Below, piece by piece: positions 6,089 through 27,952 of a stretch of DNA of 29,513 nucleotides. Each line of letters begins with the position of its first letter. Position 1 is the stretch's first letter. This DNA is from a virus. Taxonomy: Duplodnaviria > Heunggongvirae > Uroviricota > Caudoviricetes. The translations under genes were made by a program, and so were the position numbers. Under the pieces are notes generated by a model, which saw nothing but the letters and a program-made list of their open reading frames with translations, was not told where the DNA came from and ran no database searches. Location: IMG/VR virus record IMGVR_UViG_2563366805_000003, one strand, 5' to 3'.

Positions 6089-6152
6089 TCTACGGTCAGA
6101 TGGGGGTACTTATGGGGGTATTTGCTGTTCGGTTTAGTGGAGGTACCCCCAA

Positions 6153-7367
6153 GTGAAACTCAATGCCCGTCAAATAGACACAGCCAAGCCAAAAGAGAAG
6201 GCTTACAAGCTGGCCGATGGTGGCGGTTTGTATCTCTTGGTAAAACCTAATGGAGGTAAATACTGGCGACTTAAATATCGTGTAGCTGGTAAAGAGAAGC
6301 TATTGGCACTAGGTGTGTATCCTGAGGTTACTCTAGCCGATGCTCGGGCAAAACGTGAAGATGCGAAAAGAGGTATCGCTGGTGGTATCGATCCGATGGA
6401 AGCGAAACGAGAGGAAAAGATTGCCCGGGAAACGCAGTTAAACAACACCTTCAAAGATATTGCCCTTGAGTGGCACAGCAGCAAATTAAAAAAATGGTCT
6501 GCTGGTTATGCTTCAGACATCCTCGAAGCCTTCAACAAAGATGTGTTCCCTTACATTGGCAAAAAACCAATCGCCGAAATCAAACCACTTGAACTTCTGA
6601 ATGTGCTGCGGCGCATCGAGGGGCGCGGTGCTACAGAAAAAGCCAAAAAAGTGAGGCAGCGGTGCGGGGAAGTTTTCCGCTATGCAATAGTCACTGGTCG
6701 CGCAGAGTATAACCCTGCACCAGACCTTACTAGCGCGATGCAAGGCCATGAATCTAATCATTACCCTTTCCTTACAGCCAAAGAATTACCTGATTTTTTC
6801 AAGGCATTGTCCAGTTACTCAGGAAGCGCATTGGTTGTTATGGCGGCTCGTCTACTGATTATCACCGGCTTGCGAACTGGCGAACTACGTGGCGCATTAT
6901 GGGATGAAATTGATTTCAACAAGGCTATATGGGAGATACCCGCTTCACGTATGAAAATGCGGCGGCCTCATATTGTGCCATTGTCTGAGCAGGCTCTTTC
7001 GCTTATTGGGAAGATTAGAGAAATAACAGGCAATTACCCTCTTATGTTTCCCGGGCGCAATGATCCAAGGAAAACAATGAGTGAGGCCAGCATAAACCAA
7101 GTGTTTAAGCGCATTGGCTACGCTGGACGTGTAACTGGTCATGGGTTCCGACACACTATGAGCACGATTTTGCATGAGCAGGGCTATAACACCGCGTGGA
7201 TAGAAACGCAGCTCGCTCACGTTGATAAGAACTCAATTCGTGGCACATACAACCATGCGCAATATCTGGATGGAAGGCGGGAGATGCTTCAATGGTATGC
7301 CGACTATATGGATTCTCTCGAGCATGGCGGAAATGTGGTGCATATGGTGTTTGAAAAACACGCATGA
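6153..7367 (+). CDS. int: tyrosine site-specific integrase, P4-like family
   Basis: GTG start with GGAGGT RBS. The N-terminus MKLNARQIDTAKPKEKAYKLADGGGLYLLVKPNGGKYWRLKYR is typical of P4-type integrases. C-terminal catalytic region contains HGFRHT and AHVDKN...RGTYNHAQY. Confidence 0.9.
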   Translation: MKLNARQIDTAKPKEKAYKLADGGGLYLLVKPNGGKYWRLKYRVAGKEKLLALGVYPEVTLADARAKREDAKRGIAGGIDPMEAKREEKIARETQLNNTFKDIALEWHSSKLKKWSAGYASDILEAFNKDVFPYIGKKPIAEIKPLELLNVLRRIEGRGATEKAKKVRQRCGEVFRYAIVTGRAEYNPAPDLTSAMQGHESNHYPFLTAKELPDFFKALSSYSGSALVVMAARLLIITGLRTGELRGALWDEIDFNKAIWEIPASRMKMRRPHIVPLSEQALSLIGKIREITGNYPLMFPGRNDPRKTMSEASINQVFKRIGYAGRVTGHGFRHTMSTILHEQGYNTAWIETQLAHVDKNSIRGTYNHAQYLDGRREMLQWYADYMDSLEHGGNVVHMVFEKHA

Positions 7368-7510
7368 AACAACTGGACAAGTATACAGAGGTTTACTAAA
7401 GTATAGGGGAGTAGATTGATAAAAACTCACAGAGGATTGCTATTTAACAGTTAGCCCTGGAGAAGGGCAATCGCTCTTTTACAAACGAAGGTGTATTGAG
7501 CCTTCTACGT

Positions 7511-7573
7511 CGCTGACAAAGCGGAATGTTCTTTAACAGGCTTTGGCGCTGACAAAGCGCAATTGTTCTTTAA
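7511..7573. promoter_or_regulatory. tandem direct repeats CGCTGACAAAGCG(G/C)AAT(T)GTTCTTTAA upstream of the alpA-like gene; candidate operator
   Basis: Two copies, 7511-7536 and 7547-7573. A 14-bp-stem hairpin follows at 7676-7708 (AAGACCGCAATATG ttttt CATATTGTGGTCTT). Confidence 0.35.
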
Positions 7574-7795
7574 AACTACTGGATGTCACGCCTAATAGCG
7601 TGATCCTGCCGAAATGCAGGGTAGCTCTACCCTTGTGGAGCAAACAAACCAAAACAATCTGACTATCTTTTATAAAAGACCGCAATATGTTTTTCATATT
7701 GTGGTCTTTGGCGTATTCGACATTTGACGCAAATAAAACTCTCGCCATTCGTTGCAGGAGGGGGTTATTGCGTCATTAGTACAGGATATTAATAA

Positions 7796-7999
7796 ATGGC
7801 TAATTACAATTCATTAATTCGTCTCTCTGAAGTTCAAAGGCGAACTGGTTATAGCAAAGCATGGATTTATCGTCTTATTAGTCAGGGGAGGTTCCCTAAA
7901 CAGGTAAAAATTGGAAGTCGGGCAATTGCTTTTGTTGAGTCTGAAATAGATGAATGGATTGAGAAGTGTATATTAGAATCTAGAGACGAGGTGGCCTGA
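7796..7999 (+). CDS. alpA: AlpA-family (prophage CP4-57 regulatory / Vis-like) DNA-binding protein
   Basis: 67 aa. LSEVQRRTGYSKAWIYRLISQGRFPKQVKIGSRAIAFVESEIDEWI is the characteristic AlpA HTH signature. Sits directly downstream of int. Confidence 0.75.
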   Translation: MANYNSLIRLSEVQRRTGYSKAWIYRLISQGRFPKQVKIGSRAIAFVESEIDEWIEKCILESRDEVA

Positions 8000-8430
8000 T
8001 GGAAAAGAAAAACCGCCCATTACAGGCGGCTAATTCAGATATTCGTGTATCTGATGTTACGCCCCTTACAAAATCCCCTCAAGCACCAAAGCGCACACCG
8101 AAAAAGCATCGTGCCAGAGTCTATATGCTGCGTACTGGTATAGAGGGATGGACAGAAAATGACATTCTTCGCTACTGCCGTCTGTCTTCTGGTCGTAACT
8201 ATGCAACAGAGTTAGAACGCCAGCTTGGAATCACTCTGGAGCGTATCGACGAAAAGAATCCTGATGGTATCGGAACACACCTTCGCTACCGTTTCTCCTG
8301 CCGTGGTGATGTTCTGAAAGTGATCACTCATATTAACCATCTTGCGAACATAAATGATCACAACGGACTTTCTCAGCAGGAAATTGCCGACATTCTGAAA
8401 CTCTACCCGGACGCGTTTAACGCCGCCTAA
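7999..8430 (+). CDS. hypothetical protein
   Basis: 143-aa ORF whose ATG overlaps the alpA stop (translational coupling). Confidence 0.55.
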   Translation: MEKKNRPLQAANSDIRVSDVTPLTKSPQAPKRTPKKHRARVYMLRTGIEGWTENDILRYCRLSSGRNYATELERQLGITLERIDEKNPDGIGTHLRYRFSCRGDVLKVITHINHLANINDHNGLSQQEIADILKLYPDAFNAA

Positions 8431-8442
8431 CGGAGACTGAAA

Positions 8443-9276
8443 ATGAACATCGAAAAAAGCAGATTAATTTCTGAGGCCGCCCCTCATCTGAACGCCTCTC
8501 TGGGCACAATTAACGGTAATGAATTTGCCGCAATTGTCCCGGTTATTCCTGGTCATATCGGTGGGCGTGAAACCAATATTGTTAGCGCAAAAGCGTTACA
8601 CAAAGCGTTGGGCGTGGGAAAAGACTTCTCTACATGGATCACTGATCGCATCTCTGAATATGACTTCACCATTGGGCACGATTACTCAGTCCATAAAACA
8701 ATTTCCCCAAATTTGGGGAAAAGCCCGAATGGCGCGGCTTACAGCAAGATAAAGCACTCTGGCAGACCCGGCAAAGACTATCTGTTAAGTGTCGGAATGG
8801 CGAAAGAACTGGCAATGATCGAACGCAATGATCAGGGTCGCGCTATCCGCCGTTATTTCATCCAGTGCGAGGAAGAATTACAGCGTAGCGTGCCTGAAAT
8901 CGCCGCCCGCTATCGTCGCCAGCTAAAAGCCCGTATTAGTGCCGCAAACAACTTTAAGCCAATGTGCGATGCGCTGAATATGGCCCGTGCCGAGATGGGG
9001 AAAACGACGCAGCAACACCACTACACAAACGAGAGCAATATGATTTCTCGTATCGTTCTTGGTGGGCTAACTGCTAAGCAGTGGGCGCGGATAAATGGCT
9101 ATTCTGGCGAACCTCGCGACCATATGAACGCAGAACAGCTTGAGCACCTCTCATATCTCGAAAGCACCAATATCACGTTAATTGATATGGGCATGGAATA
9201 TGAGCAGCGCAAAGGAGAACTCACCCGCCTGTCGCAACGCTGGCTCGCCAAGCGTCTGGAGGCGCTCAATGTCTAA
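8443..9276 (+). CDS. phage antirepressor-like protein (AntA/AntB-type N-terminal domain)
   Basis: 277 aa. N-terminal NIVSAKALHKALGVGKDFSTWITDRISEYDFTIGHDY and central DYLLSVGMAKELAMIERNDQGRAIRRYFIQCEE resemble AntA-type domains, from recalled motifs only. Confidence 0.5.
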   Translation: MNIEKSRLISEAAPHLNASLGTINGNEFAAIVPVIPGHIGGRETNIVSAKALHKALGVGKDFSTWITDRISEYDFTIGHDYSVHKTISPNLGKSPNGAAYSKIKHSGRPGKDYLLSVGMAKELAMIERNDQGRAIRRYFIQCEEELQRSVPEIAARYRRQLKARISAANNFKPMCDALNMARAEMGKTTQQHHYTNESNMISRIVLGGLTAKQWARINGYSGEPRDHMNAEQLEHLSYLESTNITLIDMGMEYEQRKGELTRLSQRWLAKRLEALNV

Positions 9277-9448
9277 GCCAACAGGAATACCACAACCACA
9301 AAAACGCTACAAAGATGCCCACGGAGCACTCGTTACTGTCGAAAGCGTGTCTCACAACCGAGTGACGTTTTATCGCGACGGGTATCAATCGCCATGCGTA
9401 CAACCGCTGGCGCGTTTCATGAAGGAGTTCGCGGAGGTTAACCAATGA
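9269..9448 (+). CDS. hypothetical small protein
   Basis: [59 protein letters not shown]. Start overlaps the stop of the preceding gene. Confidence 0.45.
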   Translation: MSKPTGIPQPQKRYKDAHGALVTVESVSHNRVTFYRDGYQSPCVQPLARFMKEFAEVNQ

Positions 9449-10182
9449 TACCCGTCCAGAAGAAGACATTTTCACTGGCTGGTATGTCGCCAAAATCCAG
9501 CAATATGACGGCAAAGTCAGGCATTAATACAGCAGATACAAGCAAAGTTTATCATTTGCTGGTGGTCGGAACGGATGCCTTAACCATACCAGAAATCTCG
9601 GGCGATGATATTAGCATTGAGAAGGTCAGCGGCTGCGCCAGAGAATTTCTGGTCGTAGATGATGTCTTCCGCTCGTGTAGTGACTCCACAAAAACATTCG
9701 TCCACGCGCGTGACGTTAACGAAATGAGCGCGATGTACTGTGCATCTGGTGCTTCCAATAGCGAGTTTTCGGAGTCCATAAAAAAGAGCTTGCCGTTATG
9801 CGGCAACACGGTTTATGGTTATAAGGCACCTCATAAAACGGGTGCCGGGATTGGCGTCCTGAAAATTCTGAAGGCGACATATGACGCGCCGAGCGTCTTT
9901 TTTTATGTCGTAGGTCTGACTCACCCATTTTTTGGGCGTTGGTGTATAATCCAGCGCCTTTGTCAATCAATGGTGGCTCAGGCGGGGGCTTCTTCGGAAG
10001 CGCCGGTATCCTTCAGAGCCGGTTACGCCAACCCTGTCTGGGCTACCACCAGCGAAATTGGCGTTTCCGGTGGTAGCGTAACCTGCTATCTGAAGGAGGC
10101 TGCCACATGCTGGCTACTACCCCTACCCAAAAACCGCAATTTATCTGGATTATCGCCGCAGTTCGCCGCGATTGCCCGATAA
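9445..10182 (+). CDS. hypothetical protein; 3' extent uncertain
   Basis: ATGA start-stop overlap with the previous gene supports a real 5' end. The last third overlaps a promoter-like TATAAT (9946-9951) and hairpins, and overlaps the next ORF by 75 nt, so it may be non-coding leader. Confidence 0.35.
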
Positions 10183-10301
10183 TTACCGCCAAAATTCATC
10201 ATATTGCTGCCGAGTCTGAACGCGATGCTCGCCGTTCTCTGGTGCGCGATCACGTCTGCTTTTTTGCTGGTCGTATCCGCATGGAGGTGGCACATGATTA
10301 A
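10107..10301 (+). CDS. hypothetical small protein
   Basis: Strong RBS AAGGAGG 12 nt upstream; 64 aa. Confidence 0.5.
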   Translation: MLATTPTQKPQFIWIIAAVRRDCPIITAKIHHIAAESERDARRSLVRDHVCFFAGRIRMEVAHD

Positions 10302-10512
10302 AACCTACGATGTGCATATGGATCCCCTCGAACGCACAAGCCAGATCATCACACTGACAGAAGTGATTAATGACATTCTGGTGAGCAACTCTCCCTCACG
10401 AGACGAAAAACTGAAGGCGTTACTCGCGATATTGGATCTCGCCGTTCGTGACGTTCATTTCCTGCTGGAAGGTGGACAAATGCCATGCAAAACGGGGGCA
10501 ACCAATGAATAA
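10288..10512 (+). CDS. hypothetical small protein
   Basis: Internal ATG of ORF 10204-10512 preceded by GGAGGTG; overlaps the previous stop. Confidence 0.5.
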   Translation, partial: WHMIKTYDVHMDPLERTSQIITLTEVINDILVSNSPSRDEKLKALLAILDLAVRDVHFLLEGGQMPCKTGATNE

Positions 10513-10699
10513 CTCAATTAATACCCCTCGCCTTACGTCCGCACTTCAATTAATCGAGCAAGCAGCGGCTGTCCTGCTTGCTGTCAGTCTTTCGGCTGAA
10601 GAGATGGACGCTGCTGATGTCGTGGATGCGATTAAAGCGTGCTCATCTTTGGTTAACGATGCCCGTGCAGAGCTGGTAATTCTTGGGGGTGAAAAATGA
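10505..10699 (+). CDS. hypothetical small protein
   Basis: MNNSINTPRLTSALQLIEQAAAV...; start overlaps the previous gene's end. Confidence 0.45.
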   Translation: MNNSINTPRLTSALQLIEQAAAVLLAVSLSAEEMDAADVVDAIKACSSLVNDARAELVILGGEK

Positions 10700-10959
10700 A
10701 TATCAACTTAATTTATCGTCATCCGTGTGAGCTGGAAATTGAATCATTGCTGGGGCGCGAAGAGCCATATCCAGACACATTCACTCCCGCAGATTGCGCG
10801 ACTGAACGGCTTACCAGAGCGCGCACAGGTCTGGTTCATGTGATGAATGAGATTATTCCCTCGGTGGGAGGGGAACAGGCGACAGTAATCAATAGCTGGC
10901 TACAAAAAGTCACCTCCCTGATAGATATCAGTTTAATCGATGTGGAGAGTGCGAAATGA
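10696..10959 (+). CDS. hypothetical protein
   Basis: 87 aa; ATGA overlap with flanking genes. Confidence 0.5.
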   Translation: MNINLIYRHPCELEIESLLGREEPYPDTFTPADCATERLTRARTGLVHVMNEIIPSVGGEQATVINSWLQKVTSLIDISLIDVESAK

Positions 10960-11177
10960 CCAACATCCAGCTCATTGAAGCGCAATGTCGCATCGAACAG
11001 GTTCAGACTGTTTTAGGGTTCTGGCTTGAAGGGGCCAGCCCAAGCAACAGAGACAAGTTAATGATTGGCGCGGTTATGTCACTGCTCAATGGCGTACCAG
11101 AAGCTATTCAGGAAGCAGACGAATTGTTGGGCAAATATGAGTTACAGAATCATTCAGGCGAGGCGAAACATGAATAA
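10956..11177 (+). CDS. hypothetical protein
   Basis: 73 aa; ATGA overlap with flanking genes. Confidence 0.5.
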   Translation: MTNIQLIEAQCRIEQVQTVLGFWLEGASPSNRDKLMIGAVMSLLNGVPEAIQEADELLGKYELQNHSGEAKHE

Positions 11178-11772
11178 TTTCTTAACTTTCCATGCAGAAG
11201 CAACGCCTGACGGCGTAAACATCATGCACCGCAGCAACGATGGCATGACAGAACGCGTTGAGACCGTCTCATATATTGATGCCGTAAATCGTCTGGATGC
11301 CGGGGATTATGACGATAAACCAGATGAAGGTATGTCAATACATCTCGCTATAGCCGATGGCGGCAACCAGGGATATTTCGATTACACATCACAGCATAAC
11401 GTCATTATGTGGAGATGGCTGATCGCAACAGTATTCATGCTGGAAATGAGAGAGGAAAACGGCACTGTCAGCATCATTGATGATACTGGCAATCCTTCCG
11501 AAGTGGCTGTTTATTCCAACGGCATCGTTGCCATGCCGCTGTATCCAGTAGCAGAGCGCCTCGCTATGGCAAACAACATTGAGGGAGCGATGATAGAACG
11601 TTTTGGCATCGAGTCTGGCACAGAACGCTCCATCATTTTCTACAGAGCCATGATGGATGTGGAACAAGGAGCACTGACTCCATTTGGTCGTGAAACGCTT
11701 GCTGAACTTCACAACAGCTTTATAGCTGAACTGAATGAAAACGGCATGCCATCGGAACCAGTGACGCACTGA
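11170..11772 (+). CDS. hypothetical protein
   Basis: Internal ATG (MNNFLTFHAEATPDG...) preceded by GAGG; 200 aa. Confidence 0.5.
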   Translation: MNNFLTFHAEATPDGVNIMHRSNDGMTERVETVSYIDAVNRLDAGDYDDKPDEGMSIHLAIADGGNQGYFDYTSQHNVIMWRWLIATVFMLEMREENGTVSIIDDTGNPSEVAVYSNGIVAMPLYPVAERLAMANNIEGAMIERFGIESGTERSIIFYRAMMDVEQGALTPFGRETLAELHNSFIAELNENGMPSEPVTH

Positions 11773-11782
11773 GGATGGAACC

Positions 11783-12124
11783 ATGATTACTAAAAATTTC
11801 CGACTGAATGCGCTGGCAAATAAGTATGCGTCGGCACTGTATAACCACATTACCTCCACCAGCGGAGGGGACTATTTCATGGTTGATGCGGACGGCGAGG
11901 CCGTACGTGTGGAAATCGTCAATGGAGTAAAAGGCGTTCGCAGCCTGATCGATAGCTACACACTGGCAGCCATGAAAGTGTTCTACCCGCAGTGGGAAAC
12001 CGTGGGGATCGAGCTTATTGAGCGTTGCGTCACTAAGGACGGATTGACTGACGTCGGGCGTGAGATATGGCAAAGCATGGTTAATGACATGGGCGCAACT
12101 GTAGCGGGAGGTTCTCATGCGTGA
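11783..12124 (+). CDS. hypothetical protein
   Basis: 113-aa ORF preceded by GAGGATGG. Confidence 0.5.
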   Translation: MITKNFRLNALANKYASALYNHITSTSGGDYFMVDADGEAVRVEIVNGVKGVRSLIDSYTLAAMKVFYPQWETVGIELIERCVTKDGLTDVGREIWQSMVNDMGATVAGGSHA

Positions 12125-12488
12125 AAATGCAGAAATGGCGCTTAGCTCCGCAATCGGAGAGCAGGTGGCAAAGATTGCTGGTGCTGTGTGGATTCATAAC
12201 CTTCATTCTACTGGTGAAGAGAAAATGGCAATTCAGACGCCAGAGGGACGCACCATTACTACATCTCTGAAGCCGTCAGATGTTTGTGATCTGATTTGCG
12301 CATTCATGTACCCAGCAATGAGGACTGTCCACGGCGATAAGTGGAAACTTGCGACAACCGCTGAATTTGATATGTGGCTAAACAATGATGGCATGCTGAC
12401 TGATTACGGAATAACCAAGTGGCAGATGCTGGTTAGCCATATCGCAAACGCTATAGACCACGTGGGGTACGGTGATGCGAAACATTGA
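12117..12488 (+). CDS. hypothetical protein
   Basis: 123-aa ORF overlapping the previous and next genes. Confidence 0.5.
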   Translation: MRENAEMALSSAIGEQVAKIAGAVWIHNLHSTGEEKMAIQTPEGRTITTSLKPSDVCDLICAFMYPAMRTVHGDKWKLATTAEFDMWLNNDGMLTDYGITKWQMLVSHIANAIDHVGYGDAKH

Positions 12489-15231: not shown

Positions 15232-15256
15232 GCTTCTTCATGTGCGTAGAAAAGGT

Positions 15257-15367
15257 GTTGGTTCAGTTGGTTCAGTTGGTTCAATTTGTAAAGAGTATTG
15301 TTTTATAAGGATTTTATTCTTTTTATTGAACCAACACTGAACCAACAACACGGTATTTTGAACCAAC
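15257..15367. repeat. iteron cluster (putative replication origin): 3 tandem GTTGGTTCA (10-bp period), AT-rich spacer, 3 inverted TGAACCAAC
   Basis: GTTGGTTCA at 15257, 15267 and 15277. TGAACCAAC at 15327, 15338 and 15359. Spacer is ATTTGTAAAGAGTATTGTTTTATAAGGATTTTATTCTTTTTAT. Starts 26 bp after the primase stop. Confidence 0.7.
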
Positions 15368-15815
15368 ACAATGTGACTGAATTGATGCGCACAACACCTG
15401 GCTGGCATCAGAGAGTGTTTTACGAGACTTTCGTAAAATCCTGTGTACAAGGGCGTGACGTTTTTGAAAGTGAGCACTACGAAATTTTCGTAGTTCAAAA
15501 AACAGCCTCTGAGAAGTTGTTATGCCTGTTCAGCAAACCATCCGCATAGCTGATCGCGAATCAAATTACCAATGGAGCCAGAAGCAAGGGCAGAACTGAA
15601 AAGCGCCTGCCGTGAAGAGTAATGCGACACCATAAATATAGTTTTTAGAGTCCATAAAAAACCTGTCAAAACCTGACACACAGAACGATGCCACCAGCTA
15701 CTGAGCGGTGGCATTTTTTTGTGCTATTTGTTTCATATTTTGCAATTATGATGATGAATATTGCGATTTGTGAAACTATAATAACTGTTGTTTTATACAG
15801 TTCTAAGGGGGCGTT

Positions 15816-15977: not shown

Positions 15978-15993
15978 AAATGGATGGCATCGC

Positions 15994-17126: not shown

Positions 17127-18445
17127 TGGCGACATGGCAACTTGGCGGGCTGCCTAGCATGGCACCGCAAAATGATAATGCTCCTCGTTCTTCCGTTCCT
17201 CAGCCTGTGCAGTATCAGCAGCAGCCAAACGTAGGTTTAATGGCGCTACAGGGGCTAAGAGGCGTTGCTGAGATTAATCAGCAGGCGCAAATTTCCCAGC
17301 AGCTAAAAGAATATCAGGCACGGTTGGGTAGTGCGGTAGCTAATAATGATCGTGTTGGCGTGCAGAAGTTAATGGCCCAGTATCCCCAGTTTATGGCTGA
17401 TTCTCAAAAACAGATGGGATTCATTGATGCTGAGCAAAATCGGCAGACCGCTGACGCTGCCATGAATCTGCGTCTTGCGTCACAAACTGGAGATCCACTG
17501 ACCATGCAGAAGGCCATTCAGCAGGCAAATCCAGTATTACAGCGATTTGGTCTTCCTGCTGAAGAGGTTTATCAGTCTTGGCAGAATGACCCACAGGAAT
17601 TCAACAGAATCACTGACCTCATCCACCTCCATGCTGATCCAAATAGTTACTTTAGTGTTCAAGAGAAGCAGCAAGGGCAGAGTATTGCACAGCAGAACGC
17701 AGATACATCTGCATATAATGCTCAGGTTAATGCGGAGCAGGGTAATCGGCGTCTCGATATGGAGCAGTTCAAAGTCATATCCGATAACCAACTACGCACG
17801 AGAGAAATGGTTCTGAAAGCACGACTTGGACGTGCTCAAAATGACATCGAGAGAGACAAGCTCAATGCTGAACTGAGCAAGGTACAGCAGGCGAAAGTGG
17901 AGAAGATGAACGATAAAATTAATACTGTTGCAGGTAATATCGACTCCTTGAACTCTGCGCTTGAAGTGGGTCATGAACTGGCGGGAATTGTAGGGAAACA
18001 TCCTTCGGCCGTTACCCGTTCGCAGAACTATAACCCCCTGACGCTGGGGTTTGGATTCCTCCCTGATGTAGCAGAAGACACACGAAGCCTACGCGCCAAA
18101 GCTGATGAATACAACCTAAAGGTTATTCTGCCTAGCCTAAAAGGTACTTTTGGCTCTAACCCAACCGAAGGGGAAAGGGCTGCCCTTATGCAATCTCAAA
18201 ATGGCATTAAGTCAGCAACCAGCAATGAGGCATTTTTGCGAGAGTTGAATAAAGCGCAGGACGTAATTATTCGAATGCAGAAACGACAGATTGCCGGGCT
18301 CGGTATTCCTGTAACCAAATCTAAGGACGAAGAAACTGATACCAAAATGCTGTTGCAGGATCCTTCACTGGTTAAGGATTATGTGACCGCACATGGCTAT
18401 CTGCCGGAAAGTTACTATCAGGCAAAACTTAAGGGATGGCAATGA
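17126..18445 (+). CDS. putative DNA-ejection / internal virion protein, middle (gp20-like by size), Gln-rich
   Basis: 439 aa, Q-rich with coiled-coil-like stretches. Translationally coupled on both sides. Confidence 0.45.
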   Translation: MATWQLGGLPSMAPQNDNAPRSSVPQPVQYQQQPNVGLMALQGLRGVAEINQQAQISQQLKEYQARLGSAVANNDRVGVQKLMAQYPQFMADSQKQMGFIDAEQNRQTADAAMNLRLASQTGDPLTMQKAIQQANPVLQRFGLPAEEVYQSWQNDPQEFNRITDLIHLHADPNSYFSVQEKQQGQSIAQQNADTSAYNAQVNAEQGNRRLDMEQFKVISDNQLRTREMVLKARLGRAQNDIERDKLNAELSKVQQAKVEKMNDKINTVAGNIDSLNSALEVGHELAGIVGKHPSAVTRSQNYNPLTLGFGFLPDVAEDTRSLRAKADEYNLKVILPSLKGTFGSNPTEGERAALMQSQNGIKSATSNEAFLRELNKAQDVIIRMQKRQIAGLGIPVTKSKDEETDTKMLLQDPSLVKDYVTAHGYLPESYYQAKLKGWQ

Positions 18446-21162
18446 TGGCACAACTGACAGAAAAACAGAAAGCCTATTCCCGTCATCTCGATGAAAAATA
18501 TGGTTTCCCATCAGGGACGATGGAAACATTAGTTGGCAATGAATCTAGTGGTAACGGAAGTGCCGAGTCACCGAAAGGAGCTAGAGGATTTGCTCAACTG
18601 ATGCCCTCAGTAATGAGTGATGCTGGTTATCGTGGAACAGATCCGCGCTCACTGCCATTTGAAAAGCAAATGGATATCGCAGCAAACCATCTCAATAAAG
18701 GAATGAAGCGATTTGGTGATATAGGTATGGCATTGGCTGGGTATAATTCTGGCTATGCTCGTATTAATGCCGTAAGAAACGGTAAATCTACACTGCCAGA
18801 TGAAACGGCTAATTACGTAAGTAAATTTGCAGATGCCGGAATAATCCCTGATGACAGTGAAATCTTGCAGTTTGCACAAACCAGTCAACATCGCAATCTT
18901 CAGCAGCCTGACTACTCAGAGCTTGATAAAGAAATCTCTCAGGTGGGAGATATTTCTGCATGGGAAGCAAAACGTCAGCAATTTAAGAACATAGAAGCAG
19001 GACTACCAACAGCCAGTTCATGGGAGCAGAAAAGAGCTCAGTTTCTCGCCGATGAAAATGCCGGGGAACCGCAGCAGCAAGTAGCCAAGTCTAACCTTAA
19101 TCCTGAGATGGAATATCTTTCGCCAGGACTGAAAGCTGCGCCAGAGCAGATGGCCAGAGGGATTGCTAATATACCGTTTGATGTAATGGACGCAGGCGTG
19201 GGGGTAGTCAATGCGGCGCAATCAGCCGGAGCATGGGCAGCTCAGAAGCTTGGTGTGGGTGATGGCACATACACGCCCATATCACCTGTCTTTCGCCCAG
19301 TAGACCAACCTACAGATCCATACGCGCAGGCTGGTGAGCAGCTAGCACCTTACCTTATTACAGGATTAGGTGCAGGAAAGGCAGCTACCGCAGCTTCTTC
19401 AGTTGCCAACGCTCCACGTGCTGAACGTGCGGCCACAAAGGTGGCTAGTATGTTGGCAGAAAACCTGCCAGGTACATTGGTGAACGCCCAAAAGAACGGG
19501 CAGATCAGCCCAGAAGACCTAGCAAAAGAGACAGGTATTGGCCTAGCAGGATCGCTAGGAGCACGCGCTTTAATAAAGAGCGGACAGACAGCCAGTGACG
19601 TAATGCGAGATGTATTGCGGAGTAATACAAATCAATCAGGCCATGTGTTAGGGGCAGCAAATACTCTGGAAACCGCCAATGATGTATCGAAAGCAGCGCG
19701 TTCTGCCGTAGGCCGAGAGCATATCGCATCGCAGGCATCAAACGTCAGAGATGATGTCGCTAAGGCGGCGAAAATCACTGGTATTAATATCAACACCCTG
19801 ACGCCTGGAATGCGCTCAGGTAGTCGTGGAATTGCCCAAGCAGAAGGTGTTCTGGCATCAACTCCTGGGAATGTTCAGGATGCTCACCTTACGGCCTTCA
19901 ATGAAATATCCTCAAAGTTGAATAAGCAGTTGTCTGATTTCGGTGCTGAGTCTGGAAGCGCATCAGAAAAAAGCGCAGCAATTAAAGAGCGCATCATCGC
20001 GAGCCTCAGTGATATGAAAACAGCAGAGAATATGGCATGGGCAGAACTGCGAAGCACGATGCCACGCGAAAGGATGAAAATGAGTAATGGGATGGCTGTC
20101 GTCCAAGCAGAAAAAGCAGCCAATGTTCCACTCAGCCCGGAGATGAAACAGTTTCAGGCTGCCAACAACCAAGGTGGCGGCATAACCTTCGACGGGATGA
20201 AGGCATGGCGTGCTAAGTTTGCTGATGCTGAACAAGCAAACACCCGGGCAGGTAAGGCCAATGCCGCCCGGATTGCCGGAGAAATGCGCAGAGCTATCAC
20301 TGATGACATGCGCATCATGGCTGAAAAAGGAAACTTCCTCACAGAATGGCAGAAAGCTAACGATCTCTCTAAAAGTTACATTATCGCCAAACAAAATGCC
20401 GAATCTGTTTTTGGTCGAGATCTCGCATCAGACGCTATGGTAAGAAAAGGTGCCGATACGCTTAAGGCATCCGCAAACACTGGAACTGGAGCTTTTCACC
20501 GTCTTATCTCCGCGCTGCCGGAAGCAGAACGCCAACCAGCAATAGCATCTATTCTTCAGCATGCTGTGGCGCAGGGAGAGAAGGGAGGAATCGGTGAAGA
20601 GTCTGGTATCCAGTATTTTGCCAAGCTCATGACCCAGCAGAATGTAAACGCCATCAGTCGTCATGCGCCAGATCTCGGTAGAATGATGAAAGAGTTCGGT
20701 GTACTCGCTAAAGCCAGCACCAGACCGCAGCGATACGTAGAGCGCACGGGAAGAACAACTGAGGCTCTCAAAACGCTCGATTCAGGCCTTCCAAAGATCG
20801 TCGGCGTGATTATGAACGGAGTTCAACAGTCAGGTGCGATCGCTGGAGGCTTTGGCGGTGGTGTAATTGGTTCGATTAGTGGTTTGGTTGCTGGTGGCGC
20901 GCTGAGAAATACTGTGGCTAAGATTGGGGCGACAAGAAGTGGTAGGTATGCGATAGAGAAAGCCGTTCAGGAAGCTACAAAAGCAGTGCGCGCAGGGGCA
21001 TCACCAGCAGCGATCGCCGCAGCAGAGAAACGATTTTCGGCCAATAAAATTGCCATGAAAGCAATTCGTGATGCCGTTGGGGCTGAAGAATTCGTGAAAC
21101 TGACAAGGGCCGGGATTGTAGCTACCCTCAGTGGCATGAAAGATGTTAGCGAATGGGAATAG
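18436..21162 (+). CDS. large virion-associated protein with N-terminal lytic transglycosylase (SLT) domain
   Basis: 908 aa. SLT signature GNESSGNGSAESPKGARGFAQLMPSV ... LAGYNSGYARINAV (ES / GLMQ-like / YN-G motifs). Long alpha-rich C-terminus with a Gly-rich segment GAIAGGFGGGVIGSISGLVAGGAL. Confidence 0.7.
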   Translation: MAMMAQLTEKQKAYSRHLDEKYGFPSGTMETLVGNESSGNGSAESPKGARGFAQLMPSVMSDAGYRGTDPRSLPFEKQMDIAANHLNKGMKRFGDIGMALAGYNSGYARINAVRNGKSTLPDETANYVSKFADAGIIPDDSEILQFAQTSQHRNLQQPDYSELDKEISQVGDISAWEAKRQQFKNIEAGLPTASSWEQKRAQFLADENAGEPQQQVAKSNLNPEMEYLSPGLKAAPEQMARGIANIPFDVMDAGVGVVNAAQSAGAWAAQKLGVGDGTYTPISPVFRPVDQPTDPYAQAGEQLAPYLITGLGAGKAATAASSVANAPRAERAATKVASMLAENLPGTLVNAQKNGQISPEDLAKETGIGLAGSLGARALIKSGQTASDVMRDVLRSNTNQSGHVLGAANTLETANDVSKAARSAVGREHIASQASNVRDDVAKAAKITGININTLTPGMRSGSRGIAQAEGVLASTPGNVQDAHLTAFNEISSKLNKQLSDFGAESGSASEKSAAIKERIIASLSDMKTAENMAWAELRSTMPRERMKMSNGMAVVQAEKAANVPLSPEMKQFQAANNQGGGITFDGMKAWRAKFADAEQANTRAGKANAARIAGEMRRAITDDMRIMAEKGNFLTEWQKANDLSKSYIIAKQNAESVFGRDLASDAMVRKGADTLKASANTGTGAFHRLISALPEAERQPAIASILQHAVAQGEKGGIGEESGIQYFAKLMTQQNVNAISRHAPDLGRMMKEFGVLAKASTRPQRYVERTGRTTEALKTLDSGLPKIVGVIMNGVQQSGAIAGGFGGGVIGSISGLVAGGALRNTVAKIGATRSGRYAIEKAVQEATKAVRAGASPAAIAAAEKRFSANKIAMKAIRDAVGAEEFVKLTRAGIVATLSGMKDVSEWE

Positions 21163-21312
21163 ACGCTCTAACTAACAAAACCATAATAGCCAAGGACGGC
21201 ATACTGATATTGAGCCAACTATCAAAATTCCATATCACATTACGGGCCTGTGGCTTACATTCGCTTACAGTGATGATAATTTATAACCACGCAATTCTTA
21301 GGTGAGATTATC

Positions 21313-22011
21313 ATGATTAAAAATCTTCTTTTAATATTATCCCTGTCATTATTGGCTGGATGCGTACAAAAACCGTTAGTAACGGTCAATGCTTTATCTT
21401 CCGGGCAATCTGTCGGTAAGAAGTTCTTGATCATCCCCGCAAGCCAAGAACTTTGGAACACCAAACAGATTGAATACACTCAAATAGCTACGGTAGTAGC
21501 CGCCAGTTTATCAAGCCAAGGATATACACAAGTTAAAGATGAAAAATTGGCTGACCAGGTAATTCTCTTGAACTTTTTGAGAAGCGGGGCCATTTCAAAT
21601 ACTCGTAATGTAACCATCCCAATATACGGGCAAACTGGTGTGAGCTCAGCAACAACGTACGGAAACTCGAACACCACGTTCAATAGTTATGGTGGTGGCT
21701 ACGGTACAGCTAATACCACTGGAACGGCAACAACAGTTTATACGCCTACTTATGGAATTACTGGCGCGTATAACACAACTGTGACGGACACGTTCTACGG
21801 CGCAGGGGTGATACTCCAGTCGTTTGATGCCAAGGCTTATCTCAATAATAGGCAGATTAATATGTTATGGAAAGTTGGTAGCTCAGTCGTCTCGCAACAG
21901 TCTGATGGAATTGCTGATTACAAGGGGTTGGCGAGAATAGCCGCTAGCTATGCCGGGAAAAATACAGAAGGTGATATAACTTTTAATGTTGACCCTAAAG
22001 CACCAAATTAA
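21313..22011 (+). CDS. lipoprotein (signal peptide plus lipobox LLAGC), Thr/Gly/Tyr/Asn-rich; possible surface exclusion lipoprotein
   Basis: MIKNLLLILSLSLLAGCVQ fits a signal peptidase II lipobox. Low-complexity T/G/Y/N-rich middle. AT-rich gene with its own terminator. Confidence 0.65.
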   Translation: MIKNLLLILSLSLLAGCVQKPLVTVNALSSGQSVGKKFLIIPASQELWNTKQIEYTQIATVVAASLSSQGYTQVKDEKLADQVILLNFLRSGAISNTRNVTIPIYGQTGVSSATTYGNSNTTFNSYGGGYGTANTTGTATTVYTPTYGITGAYNTTVTDTFYGAGVILQSFDAKAYLNNRQINMLWKVGSSVVSQQSDGIADYKGLARIAASYAGKNTEGDITFNVDPKAPN

Positions 22012-22018
22012 CTAATAA

Positions 22019-22040
22019 GCCCGGTACGCCGGGCATTTAT
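22019..22040 (+). terminator. rho-independent terminator of the lipoprotein gene
   Basis: GCCCGG-TACG-CCGGGC hairpin followed by ATTTAT, 8 nt after the stop codon. Confidence 0.6.
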
Positions 22041-22871
22041 GCCCCTATTATTCATGAATCGCTTTTTCTAGAAGGTATGCGACAAACGTTAAGTGACATT
22101 GCCTACACATTCGGGGCGGGATTTCAAATCCGCTCCCAGTTGATGGGGGGCGTTACAGTACGCGCATATCCGCTTTATGTGAAACAGGAAGATTTTTCTG
22201 ATATCACTGCCACAGCAAAACACCAATTTCGTGACCAGTACGCGCGCGAGGGGTATCAGTTGCAAAAAATTTTGCAACTACGTCCGACCAGTACGCACAC
22301 GATGGCGGGGGATACCATGAAACTGTTCTCTACACGAGACAGAGTGGTGGTGATGTGTTGATTATCGGCGTATATGCGCACAGGACGCGCTATGACAATG
22401 TTTTATGCGGGTACACCAATCACATGTATCTGGTGTGATAAATCGCGTTACATGACCTCTCATGTTGTGCTGGTGGTTATCACGACGTTCTGAATCTGGC
22501 TTTTGTCTGATATTTTGCGACAAGTACGCGCGCGTAACATCGAAATTATCGGATGGCGTATGTTGCTGGCAAGATAAAGTCGGCGTAATACAAAGGCGTT
22601 ACTTGATAGCAGCAAGATTACAACAATGGTTGTTGAATTTGAGCGATGTAAGGAATTGATTTAGGGAGGCGCTGATGGCTAAAAAGTTCCACTACCAGCG
22701 GATGAATGCGCCAGCGATGGCCGTTTGGTAGTAAAAGAGGAGCCATTCCTCAATCAGTTGAATACATTATGCCAACTAAATGGGTGGGGGCACTGTGTGG
22801 GTATTCAGCGGTGACGGTATTTTTTAAGCCAAGGACTATCCGTAGCAGGGGGACTCATTTTGAAATATTTA

Positions 22872-23309
22872 TCATATGTAACTTATTATTTTAGATAAAG
22901 ATTTCCAGTTAAAGAAAAAAGTTATCATTGATATAATCAAATATGCCCCTGCGAGTAGCAGGGCATAATAATCCAGAGGCAGATTGCTGACAACAGGGGC
23001 AAACATCGAGATCATTGCTAATAGGCAGGCTGTGATCAGCGTAGTTCCTGTATCAAAAAGCCCCTCAATAATGCCTTTTAGTACTCCGTTACTTTTTAGA
23101 GCGCCTACAATTCCCTTTGAACTATCAAAGCTACTTAGCATGGTGACTGATGCCAAAACAAAACCAAAGAGAACTCCAGAAATAGTTGAAAGAGCACCAG
23201 CAGCCGAAATGACAGCATTGTGATCTAGGTCGTGTAAAAAATGGGCACCAGCAATAGCCATAGCTAGAGCAAACAATGACTTGGCAGCAAACAATTTCCG
23301 AGAACTCAT
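22872..23309 (-). CDS. small integral membrane protein, about four predicted TM helices; second gene of a two-gene operon
   Basis: 145 aa with four hydrophobic stretches: FALAMAIAGAHFL, ISAAGALSTISGVLFGFVLASVTML, TTLITACLLAMISMFAPVV, YYALLLAGAYLIISMITFFF. RBS AGGAAT; 12-nt gap after the upstream gene. Confidence 0.65.
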   Translation of the reverse strand: MSSRKLFAAKSLFALAMAIAGAHFLHDLDHNAVISAAGALSTISGVLFGFVLASVTMLSSFDSSKGIVGALKSNGVLKGIIEGLFDTGTTLITACLLAMISMFAPVVSNLPLDYYALLLAGAYLIISMITFFFNWKSLSKIISYI

Positions 23310-23321
23310 AATGTATTCCTG

Positions 23322-24407
23322 TTACGTTTGACTAACCAAATAGTACTGGGTTAGATACCTAAGGTTGTCATTCTTTGCTTGTAGCATAGCATTTTTAACG
23401 TCAGTATCGGTCGGATACCCATCTGCTTGGATAGGCACCATCTTCTTTACCGTAAGAACTTCGTCTACAAGACTTTTCTTCTTTTTATCGCCCTGAGCAA
23501 CAACATTTGCTTTCTCAAAAGTTAAACGACCATCACCACCAGGGAACTTTTCTAGCATCTCCTTAAGGCTTTTTTTAACGTCATCCTCAAGCCATCCCTT
23601 TGCTTTTCTTTTTAATGGAGAATGTCCGCGTAACGAAATAGTCAGGTGGCTTGAACTGGTGCCTCTGATCATCTCAATCATCTGATTCGCGAACATTCCA
23701 TCGAGTTGATACTGTGCGGCATTGAAGTTTCTTGGGATGGCCACAGAAATCTCGCAGCTTCTTAGATTGGATCCAGTTTCGAGTAGTTCTTTGATGCTTT
23801 CTTCTTTCCAAATGGCTTCAAAAGAAACAGGGACTCCGCGATCACTGGAGTTGAAAAGAAGGAAGGCTAAGTCACTATGGCGTGGACCTAAATGATTTAA
23901 AGACAATACTAGAATGTCTGTCTGAGGATAATAAATAAAGTATGTACGTTCTGAAAGAGTCTTTGCCCCGGCTAGAGGGATTTTCTCTTCCACCCACTCT
24001 TTATCTGTAATATATGCCAGTGTTGCGCTTTTTCTTCTTCGAGACATGAATCCGAAGTAGGAGCCATCCTCGGGTGAGATGTCTAGAAAATGAATTTTAA
24101 GTTCTCTTTCACCAAAGTCTGCATAGTGGGTCATCTTGAAGTCTTTAGAACACCGATCATACAGATTTTTAAAGGCCTCTGCGGTTAACCCCTTGTTACT
24201 AGTGCGAATATTCTCAGAGCTTGTGTAAAAGCCCACCCTTACAGATTTCAAACTTTGATCTTTTGGTGCCACAGTCATTTGAGCTCCATTGTACTCTGCG
24301 ATAGTTTTTGCACACCTTGAAATCAAAATCTCCATGTCAGTCACGAGAAAATAACTATGGATGAAACCCATCAAAGGCATTGAATACAGGTGGCTTTTGA
24401 GAATCAT
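23322..24407 (-). CDS. hypothetical cytoplasmic protein, no recognisable motif; first gene of the two-gene operon
   Basis: 361-aa ORF on the minus strand, no signal peptide or TM segment. AT-rich relative to the flanks. A long upstream non-coding region includes the second iteron cluster. Confidence 0.6.
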   Translation of the reverse strand: MILKSHLYSMPLMGFIHSYFLVTDMEILISRCAKTIAEYNGAQMTVAPKDQSLKSVRVGFYTSSENIRTSNKGLTAEAFKNLYDRCSKDFKMTHYADFGERELKIHFLDISPEDGSYFGFMSRRRKSATLAYITDKEWVEEKIPLAGAKTLSERTYFIYYPQTDILVLSLNHLGPRHSDLAFLLFNSSDRGVPVSFEAIWKEESIKELLETGSNLRSCEISVAIPRNFNAAQYQLDGMFANQMIEMIRGTSSSHLTISLRGHSPLKRKAKGWLEDDVKKSLKEMLEKFPGGDGRLTFEKANVVAQGDKKKKSLVDEVLTVKKMVPIQADGYPTDTDVKNAMLQAKNDNLRYLTQYYLVSQT

Positions 24408-24748
24408 CCTAACCTGGTGACGGTGGTTCGCATATCCTGATGGATGATCAGTGATTAATCAATGCGCCAAGCAGATGTGTCTATGTGTTTGTTAATCATT
24501 GCATGACAGTAGATCGACATGGGAGATCACGTTATATAGTTGAATTGTTAGGATATCCATGCACCGATCAACTGACTAGGCTGATGTGCTTTTTAGCAGG
24601 TGCCATATAGTAGTTAGGCGGTTCTGTGAAATGATTACTGTTCCAGCATAACTGCGGCATAAAGCGGTGCTATATAAGCTATTTGCTGGCGGATTTAGTC
24701 TTCACCGTTAATATATGTAGTGACTATTTGACAGAGTGTTAGTTCACG

Positions 24749-24848
24749 GACACTTTTTGTTGGTTCAAAATGAGTTGATGTTGGTTCAATATTTTAGAAA
24801 AAACACAATAAAAACAACGCTCTTTACAAATTGAACCAACTGAACCAA
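24749..24848. repeat. second iteron cluster, inverted relative to 15257-15367: 2 GTTGGTTCA, AT-rich spacer, 3 tandem TGAACCAAC
   Basis: GTTGGTTCA at 24749 and 24770. TGAACCAAC at 24822, 24831 and 24840. The reverse complement of 24808-24862 is near-identical to 15246-15300. Confidence 0.7.
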
Positions 24849-24894
24849 CTGAACCAACACCTTTTTGCTTATCTATATAATCTGAGAGGCAGAA

Positions 24895-25176
24895 ATGATA
24901 AGGGACAGGAAAGCTGAAGAGCTGGAGTCAAAAGGGCTATACCGGAGAGCTGCCGCACGATGGATGGAAGTCATGCTGTTATGCACCGAGGACGATGATC
25001 GGGAATGGATAAAGCGCCGCCGTGAAACGTGTCTGGAGAACGTGAAGCGCCCGCCCGTGAAGGTTGAGGAATTTGGCGACCTGCATAAAGCTGTTACCGA
25101 AACGCAACACCGCATGGGGATAGCGCAACCGAACGGTAACGCCTTCCGGTTAAATGGCGGCAAGAGGCAAAGGTAG
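24895..25176 (+). CDS. PerC-family transcriptional activator-like protein
   Basis: 93 aa. MIRDRKAEELESKGLYRRAAARWMEVM matches the recalled PerC/Pch N-terminal signature (AEELE..G.YRRAA.RW). Confidence 0.55.
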   Translation: MIRDRKAEELESKGLYRRAAARWMEVMLLCTEDDDREWIKRRRETCLENVKRPPVKVEEFGDLHKAVTETQHRMGIAQPNGNAFRLNGGKRQR

Positions 25177-25473
25177 ACCACCAGAGGGAAATCATCCTCT
25201 GGCTGGCGGTTTCTGGTATTTCGGGACAAGTACGCGCACGCGTAGCACCCAATCGGTGAGGAAATAGCGGCGACCTGAATGGTCAAAATCACAACGCAGC
25301 TATCCCCGTAAGCATCGCTTAACGGAATAGCAGTAACCTGAATCCAGTGGGGAGGGGGTAGTCAAATCTCTACAGGCCTGACTATCCGGGACTGCCCGCC
25401 CCATCGTTTTTTTATACCCGCGAAAAATGAAATTTAATCCGGGCGTGTTTCATCCTTCCAGAGGGTATGACGT

Positions 25474-25659
25474 ATGACACCACGCGAAATAGCCTTATTG
25501 ACCATCGCCAAACTTGAGCACGGAGGCCACCAGCTTACACAGGCAGATCAACGGGAGATAGAACGATCAGTTAATGCCGATATAGCCCGGCGCGACAGGT
25601 TCCGCGAAATGATGCGAGCACCTGCCTACCAGTGGAAGAAGCCAGCGCCGCGCAGGTAG
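25474..25659 (+). CDS. hypothetical small basic protein
   Basis: 61-aa ORF with plausible RBS GAGGGT. Confidence 0.35.
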   Translation: MTPREIALLTIAKLEHGGHQLTQADQREIERSVNADIARRDRFREMMRAPAYQWKKPAPRR

Positions 25660-25779
25660 ATATGGGATTATTCCACATGTAACTTATGCGTATTAAGCAA
25701 ATTTCCTTTATTCACCTTTACAGAATTGTGAGTACGTCAGTATCGTTATCCTTCCGATTCGCATTTATTCAGGATTTGC

Positions 25780-26322
25780 ATGTACCAGCTAAAGATAACC
25801 ATCCGAGACAGCAAACCACCTATATGGCGGCGTGTGCTGGTTCCAGAGCAAATCCCCTTTAGTAAACTTCATGCCGTGATCCAGTTAGCTTTTGGCTGGA
25901 ATGACGAACACCTGTATATGTTCGAGAAAGGGCGTAAAGGTGATCCAGGTAGCGAGTATCGCGTATGGGGTGAGGATGAAAGCATGGGTAACGCGGCAAT
26001 CACGCCACTATGGGCGGCGCTCCAGAATGAGGGTGACAAGCTGGTTTACACGTATGACTTTGGCGACTGGTGGGATTGCGTCATTGTGCTGGAGAAGCAA
26101 ACACACGATACGAGTAATCAGCCCATTAGCTGCCTGCGTGGGAAAGGCACCACCCCGGCGGAAAACTCAGGCGGCTTGCATGGTTACAATGAATTGCTAT
26201 TACAGGCCAGAGAGTCTGATAATCCTGAGCAGGCCGAGATCCACAATTTCCTGATGCTGGATATTGAACGCCGGGTTTACGACCTGAGCCGCATCAACGA
26301 CAGATTGCAGGCTATTAACTGA
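25780..26322 (+). CDS. pRiA4b ORF-3-like family protein
   Basis: 180 aa. MYQLKITIRDSKPPIWRRVLVPEQIPFSKLHAVIQLAFGWNDEHLYMF...YTYDFGDWWDCVI fits the recalled PRiA4_ORF3 pattern (YxLK..PPIWRR, FGW, DFGDWW). Confidence 0.6.
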   Translation: MYQLKITIRDSKPPIWRRVLVPEQIPFSKLHAVIQLAFGWNDEHLYMFEKGRKGDPGSEYRVWGEDESMGNAAITPLWAALQNEGDKLVYTYDFGDWWDCVIVLEKQTHDTSNQPISCLRGKGTTPAENSGGLHGYNELLLQARESDNPEQAEIHNFLMLDIERRVYDLSRINDRLQAIN

Positions 26323-26674
26323 CCCGCATGTATTCACCTGATATTGCGTTATCAGCGCCGCCAGTATCGCGCATAACAGCACAATGACCGGGTAAACCGT
26401 AACGCACGACCGTTGCGTTAGTCTCACCGCCGCGCCGTATCTGGCGCGATTCATACACTGTCACCCGCTCAAGCAGTCCACCAGCAACCATGCTTTCCAG
26501 TGTGCGCCGGGTTGATTCGAGCTGGTGACGCTTATCGAACGACACCATGCCATGAAGCAGGTAGGCCACACCCGACACATCGAACGGCGGCGCACCAATC
26601 TCACCAGTCACCCATTCGAGGTTATCCGGTTCAAAGTAGCTAAGTATCTCTTTTTTGCGGCTGGTCATTCTCAT
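26315..26674 (-). CDS. hypothetical protein
   Basis: 119-aa ORF converging on the previous gene, 8-nt overlap. Confidence 0.4.
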   Translation of the reverse strand: MRMTSRKKEILSYFEPDNLEWVTGEIGAPPFDVSGVAYLLHGMVSFDKRHQLESTRRTLESMVAGGLLERVTVYESRQIRRGGETNATVVRYGLPGHCAVMRDTGGADNAISGEYMRVS

Positions 26675-27272
26675 GGCTGGCTGATTCCTTATTGTGGGAT
26701 AGCACTATCATACAATAAGTGGGTTAAAGGGAGAGCGTTACCGCCTGATATGCTGTATGAATAACAACCAAATTTCAGGGGCGGAAAAAGATATGGGGGT
26801 ACTTTTGGGGGTATCTATAAAAAATGAACAATAAAAAAGGCAACAAAAACAAAGCTTATCGCCTATGTGTATTGTTCCTATTATCGCACCATTAAAATCA
26901 AATTGTTACGTAAGATCTTATCATTCTCCCACCAAAAAATTATCTTAATGTAACAGCTGGTGTAAGTAAATTCTATCAACGAAGATCAATCTTATCTACT
27001 GACCAAAAAGGCCTGATAGGGCTTCGCTCACTATACATCCTTGGCTGCAGGTTTAGTTGTACACCACTCCTAAATTTAATGTGTTGGCAATGTGTTCAAT
27101 AAAGCTCGAACAAATTAGCTCATTATGATCGGTTAATACTTCAACTTCTGGTTGCATGATTGTTTGTCCGTAAAAAGATAACGCGCCTGCCGGGTAGTAG
27201 CAGGCGCATTACGCAATAGGTAAACAAGGGAGGAAGTTCAGAAATGTAAATCGGGAAGGTTGTACGCAATGT

Positions 27273-27952
<680 letters not shown>

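Follow-up and report, generated by a model that had tools for sequence, protein, structure and literature searches.

The 29,513-nucleotide stretch of DNA analyzed here (IMG/VR virus record IMGVR_UViG_2563366805_000003, the whole of which is called the window below) matches the proA-thrW region of Escherichia coli A29 (NZ_CP028746), with 100% identity over the 601-bp segment that contains the right junction (26600–27200). At this site thrW carries a stack of three elements, i.e., the end of an SfV-like myovirus prophage (1–5941), an island of 20.9 kb and a set of CP4-6-type genes (26894–29513). We deal here with the island and, more specifically, with a pair of near-identical 20-mers located close to its two ends. 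The island is 98.2% identical to EcCIMP1, a phage-inducible chromosomal island (PICI) of E. coli MP1, over positions 5942–22579 of the window and 98.6% over 24736–26893, and the two share the thrW site, the attR and the 20-mers at both ends. Judging from this sequence comparison, the island is an EcCIMP1-type PICI integrated in thrW. EcCIMP1 is mobilized by its helper, the P22-like phage Kapi1, and its excision needs int and alpA (PMC11773190).

The int gene of the island (6153–7367, + strand) codes for a tyrosine integrase of the P4/SXT type, 404 aa long and with an arm-DNA-binding domain at its N-terminus, and its Pfam matches were Arm-DNA-bind_3 (PF13356, 1.4e-28), Phage_int_M and Phage_integrase. 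The N-domain matched also PDB 3JU0 (2e-27) and 3JTZ (1.3e-20), which are solved structures of arm-type binding domains (HAI7 and HPI integrases). The alpA-like gene (7796–7999, + strand) codes for a small helix-turn-helix (HTH) protein of 67 aa, the counterpart of which is required for the excision of EcCIMP1.

Repeats and core sites at the ends of the island

A sequence-only reading of the window had pointed out the two 20-mers as direct repeats and suggested that they marked either the boundaries of the element or integrase-binding sites used for excision. Their coordinates were borne out, with GGGGGTACTTATGGGGGTAT at 6102–6121 and GGGGGTACTTTTGGGGGTAT at 26795–26814, both on the + strand and identical at 19 of 20 positions, and so were the 31 nt found between the left repeat and int and the 20.7 kb that separate the repeats. 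Allowing up to three mismatches, we found no sites in the window other than these two, and 100 dinucleotide-preserving shuffles gave no match to the 20-mer (chance expectation none). The similarity was actually longer, 22 nt with 21 identical (6100–6121 vs. 26793–26814), and each copy could be resolved into two 12-bp units, (A/T)TGGGGGTAYYT, in head-to-tail order. The left doublet consists of ATGGGGGTACTT (6100–6111) followed by ATGGGGGTATTT (6112–6123), here named P'1 and P'2, and the right one of ATGGGGGTACTT (26793–26804) followed by TTGGGGGTATCT (26805–26816), named P1 and P2, all of them on the + strand; the first pair was delimited by sequence match and conservation across int loci and the second by sequence match and comparison of the far arms. 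A fifth unit, P'3, is inverted and lies at 6141–6152 (AGGTACCCCCAA, or TTGGGGGTACCT read on the minus strand), directly 5' of the GTG start codon of int at 6153. It is situated between this codon and a Shine-Dalgarno GGAGG at 6139–6143, and a similar inverted unit is found at the int ATG of P4. The GGGGGTA heptamer occurs eight times in the window vs. 1.9 times expected window-wide, and five of the eight adjoin the att ends. An isolated GGGGGTA followed by AAATCTCTAC was located at 25354–25378, 1.4 kb inside the right end, and is conserved in strains D2, MP1 and 30COLEC.

The attachment cores were found outside the repeats. A partial 3' fragment of thrW (tRNA-Thr) of 47 nt is present at 5942–5988 (+ strand), as indicated by the alignment to K-12 thrW and by the megablast homology with other carriers, which begins at 5942. 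It serves two elements as a junction, on the right for the upstream SfV-like prophage and on the left for the satellite, and because nothing more of a tRNA gene is present, ARAGORN detected no complete tRNA in the window. The attL core TCCTATTATCGGCACCATT (5971–5989, + strand), which holds the crossover segment, was placed by comparison with K-12 and relatives and is the same segment as the EcCIMP1 repeat TCCTATTATC. The attR core TCCTATTATCGCACCATT (26876–26893, + strand), placed by comparison with K-12, has one G fewer (26886–26887) than attL and K-12, and the same attR is found in EcCIMP1, which is proficient in excision. Both junctions and the empty site have in common the segment TCCTATTATCG(G)CACCATT. 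The distance from the end of the right repeat to the attR core is 62 nt, with an A/T-rich spacer of ca. 60 nt (26817–26875, + strand) whose length, not its sequence, is kept among relatives, and the left repeat starts ca. 110 nt after the attL core. Strain K-12, with an empty thrW site, aligns to the window from 26876 onward only, and its thrW locus lacked any GGGGGTA heptamer. In EcCIMP1 the circular junction has been amplified and Sanger-sequenced, revealing the direct repeat TCCTATTATC, and a 10-bp core repeat is all that the paper defines (PMC11773190). A relative in E. coli 30COLEC (82% nucleotide identity over the segment upstream of int and the 5' third of the gene) sits elsewhere in the chromosome, at a tRNA-like site that precedes torI, again with its junctions at the same core. 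Over five E. coli strains the length of the element ranges from ca. 13 to 21 kb and the distances from repeats to cores are constant.

The loss of a G at attR has larger equivalents in the relatives, such as TCCTATTATC-CCATT at locus L004 and deletions at L035, L040, L074 and L081, in agreement with the damage of the tRNA fragment at attR reported for PICIs with Thr, Pro and SeC tRNAs as targets (PMC10111431). The 30COLEC island (L006 19950–20165 and 33000–33110) lies within the KplE1 remnant at argW, where it occupies the secondary site GGTTCGATTCCCTATTCGG/AGATAGCAC just 5' of torI. An uninterrupted version of this site was found in the P22-like phage IME10 (L087 318–350). Taken together, the insertion in 30COLEC and the intact site of IME10 indicate that this satellite family can insert in P22-like (pro)phage DNA beside the excisionase gene.

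Conservation of the 12-bp units and their co-variation with the integrase

We surveyed 79 loci with integrase (Int) homologs of 61–98% identity, one genome per species, belonging to many genera of the Enterobacterales. In nearly all of them two units at a 12-bp period came first and an inverted unit, directly adjoining the start codon, came next, and the end of a tRNA gene was located ca. 165 nt upstream of int, the targets being five (Thr, Arg, Gly, SeC, and Ser tRNAs). The far end of the element was readable in seven of the 79 loci (L017, L028, L035, L036, L040, L074, and L081), where a doublet of the locus's own unit type was found 60–65 nt before the partial tRNA copy or attR core, over spacers that were not homologous to each other. 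The same far-end arrangement was found in the E. coli relatives D2, RM9088, 30COLEC, and MP1. When 16 P' arms of the thrW type were aligned, the invariant columns were mainly those of the core, three GTCTAC-like motifs, the unit heptamers, a TGTTCGG block and the inverted unit. At L005, where the island has decayed and its int is truncated, one unit has been lost and the other is mutated. A scan of IMG/VR recovered close relatives only (86–100% identity), among which doublet plus inverted unit were kept in 56 of the 57 that had upstream sequence, and no further unit types appeared.

The sequence of the unit varies by lineage, always with all copies changing together. We found the types GGGGGTA, GGGGGCA, GGGGGCC, TGTATAG, and TGGTATA, the direct and inverted copies pairing as GGGGGTA/TACCCCC, GGGGGCA/TGCCCCC, GGGGGCC/GGCCCC, GTGTATAG/CTATACAC, TTGTATAG/CTATACAA, and TGGTATA/TACCA. 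The type of unit tracked residues 29, 50, and 53 of Int without exception (71/71 loci). Thus, GGGGTA units (42 loci) go with Leu at 29, Leu at 50 and Leu, Ile or Val at 53; GGGGCA units (20 loci) with Glu or Gln at 29, Arg at 50 and Phe at 53; GTATAG or GGTATA units (nine loci) with Leu at 29, Met at 50 and Leu or Phe at 53; and the GGGGCC units of a single locus with Leu, Lys and Ile, respectively. The Int of the window has L29, L50 and L53 together with GGGGGTA units. In a possible code, units with a T at position 6 would go with Leu at residue 50, those with a C there with Arg or Lys, and TGTATAG units with Met, residues 29 and 53 co-changing. A direct readout, in which Arg or Lys would contact the C:G pair and Leu the T:A pair, is chemically plausible.

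The association does not trace back to one ancestral split, because integrases of the GGGGGCA type are found in the Thr, in the Arg and in the SeC clade when Int is classified by its C-terminal part. The C-terminal parts of the integrases at loci L019 (GGGGGTA) and L020 (GGGGGCA) are 92% identical and their core-proximal P' arms near-identical, but units and N-domains differ. Between these two loci there is apparently a recombination breakpoint just upstream of the units. The AlpA-like proteins, on the other hand, were almost identical across unit types, as seen for L079 (TGTATAG) vs. L048 (GGGGGTA) and L052, and for L062 and L044 (GGGGGCA) vs. L042 and L043 (GGGGGTA).

An additional doublet, GGGGTATCGCTGGGGGTATC, was found within int in several relatives (L004 20376; L008–L017 at int +217), where it encodes RGIAGGI. 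In the window it is degenerate (6370–6391), and it could be either an extra site or a coding coincidence.

Comparison with known attachment sites

A close parallel was found in the satellite phage P4 (NC_001609), in which 12-mers laid out as in the window are annotated as "attP arm sequence repeat". P4 has two tandem units on the P arm (4151–4174), a core (4078–4097) in the 3' end of a tRNA gene, as in the window, and 112 nt past the core two more tandem units (3942–3965), followed by an inverted unit (3915–3926) that abuts the ATG of MKLNARQVETAK. The integrases of P4 and the window share the N-terminus (MKLNARQ...), but P4 has GGGGGCA units and an Int with E29, R50, and F53, in place of GGGGGTA with L29, L50, and L53. 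P4 was not used in deriving the relationship between units and residues, so that it amounts to an independent check, and it obeys the rule. They differ in the tRNA target, the cargo and the distance from P doublet to core (53 nt in P4 and 62 nt in the window), and also in that P4 has an annotated arm repeat inside int (3621–3632), the counterpart of which in the window is the degenerate one.

The intact attP sites of the phages IME10 (P22-like) and phiEt88 have the same start-to-start spacings (12, 198, and 11 nt) and inverted units at the int ATG, with unit sequences of their own (GGGTAAAAT and GCGGGCATA, respectively) that are unlike those of the window. IME10 carries the IntS/TorI module of KplE1 (CPS-53) and has two inverted units vs. 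one in the window. The integrases of KplE1 and the window are both of the P4/SXT subgroup, and in both cases arm-type P' sites overlap the regulatory region of int. In KplE1 the P' sites share a TAAA motif, which is also present in the IME10 unit, and P'1 overlaps the −10 box of the intS promoter; IntS represses its own promoter, and the sites for TorI are located between the core and the P' sites (PMC2951348). The differences are that KplE1 has a clear sigma-70 promoter overlapping P'1 and TorI as recombination directionality factor (RDF), whereas in the window no such promoter was detected and the RDF is AlpA-like.

A second class of repeats in the window corresponds in position to the TorI sites. 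Two copies of GTCTAC (6005–6010 and 6068–6073) and one of ATCTAC (6088–6093), all on the + strand and conserved in the alignment of P' arms, are confined to the int-proximal P' arm. In the clade L024–L029 the three copies are GTCAAC and a small TorI-like HTH protein replaces the AlpA-like one. By analogy with the attL of KplE1, we infer that these repeats are the better candidates for RDF sites.

In the helper-embedded PICIs (HE-PICIs), Mageeney et al. (2023, PMC10111431) described a doubled motif, tgTGTATTGCantgTGTATTGCa, the distance of which from the attP centre is 81 ± 2 bp on the upstream side and 132 ± 2 bp on the downstream side. This motif and the repeats of the window consist each of two co-oriented tandem doublets, with distances that sum to 213 and 212, respectively, and different unit sequences. 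The authors reported that the motif was absent from other PICIs and left open whether its binder was the Int arm domain or AlpA (PMC10111431). The comparison presented here bears on that question and favors, as far as sequences can tell, the Int arm domain.

A predicted attP with five arm-type sites

Joining the ends of the island gives an attP of ca. 260 bp, in which P1 and P2 are followed by 62 nt of A/T-rich sequence, the core (TCCTATTATCG/CACCATT), ca. 110 nt with the three GTCTAC repeats, P'1 and P'2, 17 nt, the inverted P'3 and finally int. On the excised circle the centres of the two doublets are located ca. 78 bp upstream (−78) and ca. 134 bp downstream (+134) of the crossover, hence the sum of 212. 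We consider it very probable that the two 20-mers are arm-type sites, one doublet on the P arm and one on the P' arm, which the P4-type Int encoded by the element itself binds through its N-terminal domain. The sequence-only reading is thus partly supported: integrase-binding sites used in excision are supported by the position of the repeats, by their conservation across genera, by the way in which all copies change in step with the arm-binding domain of Int and by the matching P4 repeats, and element ends are not supported.

The Int of phage lambda is heterobivalent, and its N-domain binds the sites P1, P2, and P'1–P'3 on both arms flanking the core, which are needed for the integrative and the excisive intasomes. 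The logic of the arm sites would be the same in the window, although the sequence of the sites, their number, spacing, and pattern of orientation differ, and the N-domain of lambda belongs to a different Pfam family, Arm-DNA-bind_3 in the window having an extra strand and helix. By the mechanism that we propose, the C-terminal domains of a heterobivalent Int would bind and cut the thrW core and its N-domains would hold the five arm units, four protomers bridging arms and cores to form the intasome. In the integrated state P'1–P'3 are in attL and P1–P2 in attR, and both sets would be needed for the synapsis of attL with attR in excision. The excisive complex would comprise the Int tetramer, AlpA (as required in EcCIMP1) and probably a host bending protein, and the same arm and core sites on the circle would drive integration. 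Since P'1–P'3 fall within the 53 nt that precede the start of int, with P'3 reaching into the ribosome-binding region, Int probably represses its own gene by binding to them, as demonstrated for intS and reported for P4 int.

Several points weigh against this interpretation. For this element and for EcCIMP1, the binding of Int to the units and their role in recombination are deduced from sequence, and the EcCIMP1 paper makes no mention of arm sites (PMC11773190). The autoregulation step is drawn by analogy, and a sigma-70 scan of 5900–6300 found no consensus promoter upstream of int. We looked for exact matches to the consensus of integration host factor (IHF) in both arms and there were none. 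The far arms compared are those of just seven of the 79 loci and of close E. coli relatives. Besides, the P' units adjoin the sequence coding for the N-domain, and part of the co-variation could be due to linkage and not to recognition; linkage is disfavored because the far P-arm doublets match the P' type of their own locus. The last point is that the sites of RDFs or excisionases are described as typically tandem direct repeats one helical turn apart (PMC7498355).

That description would suit the doublets as sites for the AlpA-like RDF instead of Int, and AlpA was indeed left as a possible binder of the equivalent motif of HE-PICIs (Mageeney et al., PMC10111431). We think this improbable, given that the AlpA-like proteins are near-identical where the units differ (TGTATAG vs. 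GGGGGTA, GGGGGCA vs. GGGGGTA) and it is the Int N-domain residues that track the unit type; moreover, the units are found on both arms and in both orientations, and the mapped RDF sites of KplE1 are between the core and the P' sites, where the window has the three GTCTAC repeats instead. Somewhat less probable still is that the units act solely as transcriptional operators of int, bound by Int or another regulator and devoid of a role in recombination. The three units that crowd the end of the int leader, one of them over the ribosome-binding region, and the negative autoregulation of intS and P4 int speak in favor of operators, but the second doublet is 20.7 kb away at the opposite end, beside the other core copy and downstream of the 3' end of a minus-strand open reading frame (ORF, 26315–26674). 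No int promoter or gene start needing an operator was identified there (an outward-reading promoter was not searched for), and the positions at ca. −80 and +132 around the crossover are fixed in intact phage attP sites too.

To the two remaining possibilities we give practically no credit. Direct repeats near both ends of an island invite the view that they are its ends or att crossover sites, as the sequence-only reading had considered, but the 20-mers are absent from the empty thrW site, the homology with K-12 breaks at 26876 and not at 26795, and the junctions of EcCIMP1 and of the 30COLEC island are at the core, with repeat-to-core distances that stay fixed in elements of 13–21 kb. Chance similarity or a dispersed genomic repeat has nothing more in its favor than the shortness of the sequence, and is refuted by the shuffles (0/100), by the conservation of the 20-mer across genera despite diverged flanks and by its distribution, since 544 of the 5426 complete E. 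coli genomes had it (ca. 10%, those with this family of elements), at two places per genome as the median and never at more than four. Such a low number of copies per genome also rules out a dispersed intergenic repeat of the REP, ERIC, or MITE kind.

With the doublets interpreted as Int arm sites, the one non-coding repeat that stands out in a widespread satellite family of E. coli is given a function and an attP is defined for the islands of the EcCIMP1 type. A doublet at ca. −80, another at ca. +132 and an inverted unit at the int start are shown to be the general layout of P4-type integrases, which can be used in annotation to place crossover sites and element ends. Nothing is overturned, this being the expected anatomy of a heterobivalent integrase, and the EcCIMP1 family, its core att site and P4-type arm repeats as a kind of feature were already known. 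In the literature that we searched, the GGGGGTA arm sites of the EcCIMP1-type PICI were not described and there was no report of a family-wide rule linking the unit sequence with Int residues 29, 50, and 53, and a full-text search for GGGGGTA returned primers and unrelated sequences only.

A more speculative idea, which we would put somewhat below an even chance, is that the arm units and the N-domain of Int together make up a specificity module that can be swapped and obeys a simple residue-to-base code. Its exchange between integrases that are otherwise near-identical, such as those of L019 and L020, would create orthogonal arm specificities. If this were true, several satellites or islands that share a tRNA gene as a stack could excise independently, and there would be a rational route to orthogonal P4-type integrases. 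One such stack was found in Photorhabdus asymbiotica (L040 17111–17400), where an element with GGGGGTA units is followed at the same tRNA-Arg by a second one with GGGGGCA units and an integrase of its own.

As for the rest of the island and its surroundings, the right end of the SfV-like prophage codes for tail fibre assembly genes, a Pin invertase and a GIY-YIG protein and ends in the 47-nt thrW fragment, and the CP4-6-type flank contains the ykfI/yafW toxin-antitoxin pair and ykfG. The only exact IHF consensus nearby (26896–26908) is just to the right of the attR core, in chromosomal flank shared with K-12. Other products of the island are AntA and Ash family proteins, a TOPRIM/DUF927 primase, a PRiA4_ORF3 protein and the P22-type ejection proteins gp7, an Inj_translocase protein and an SLT-domain protein. 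The segment 22580–24735, which takes the place of a shorter one in MP1, is the sole part of the island absent from EcCIMP1. It contains two minus-strand ORFs (22872–23309, 145 aa, and 23322–24407, 361 aa) with no match in a Pfam search, and looks like a cargo swap, possibly in an accessory or defense slot. Finally, a 55-nt inverted repeat (15250–15304/24811–24865, and also 15333–15375/24751–24793), 96% complementary and rich in GTTGGTTCA iterons, has one copy directly 3' of the primase gene and the other 9.5 kb away, so that they bracket the ejection-protein cargo; both are present in EcCIMP1. P4 has also iteron clusters (ori and crr) flanking its primase gene and, by analogy, the two copies may be a replication origin and a cis-required region.

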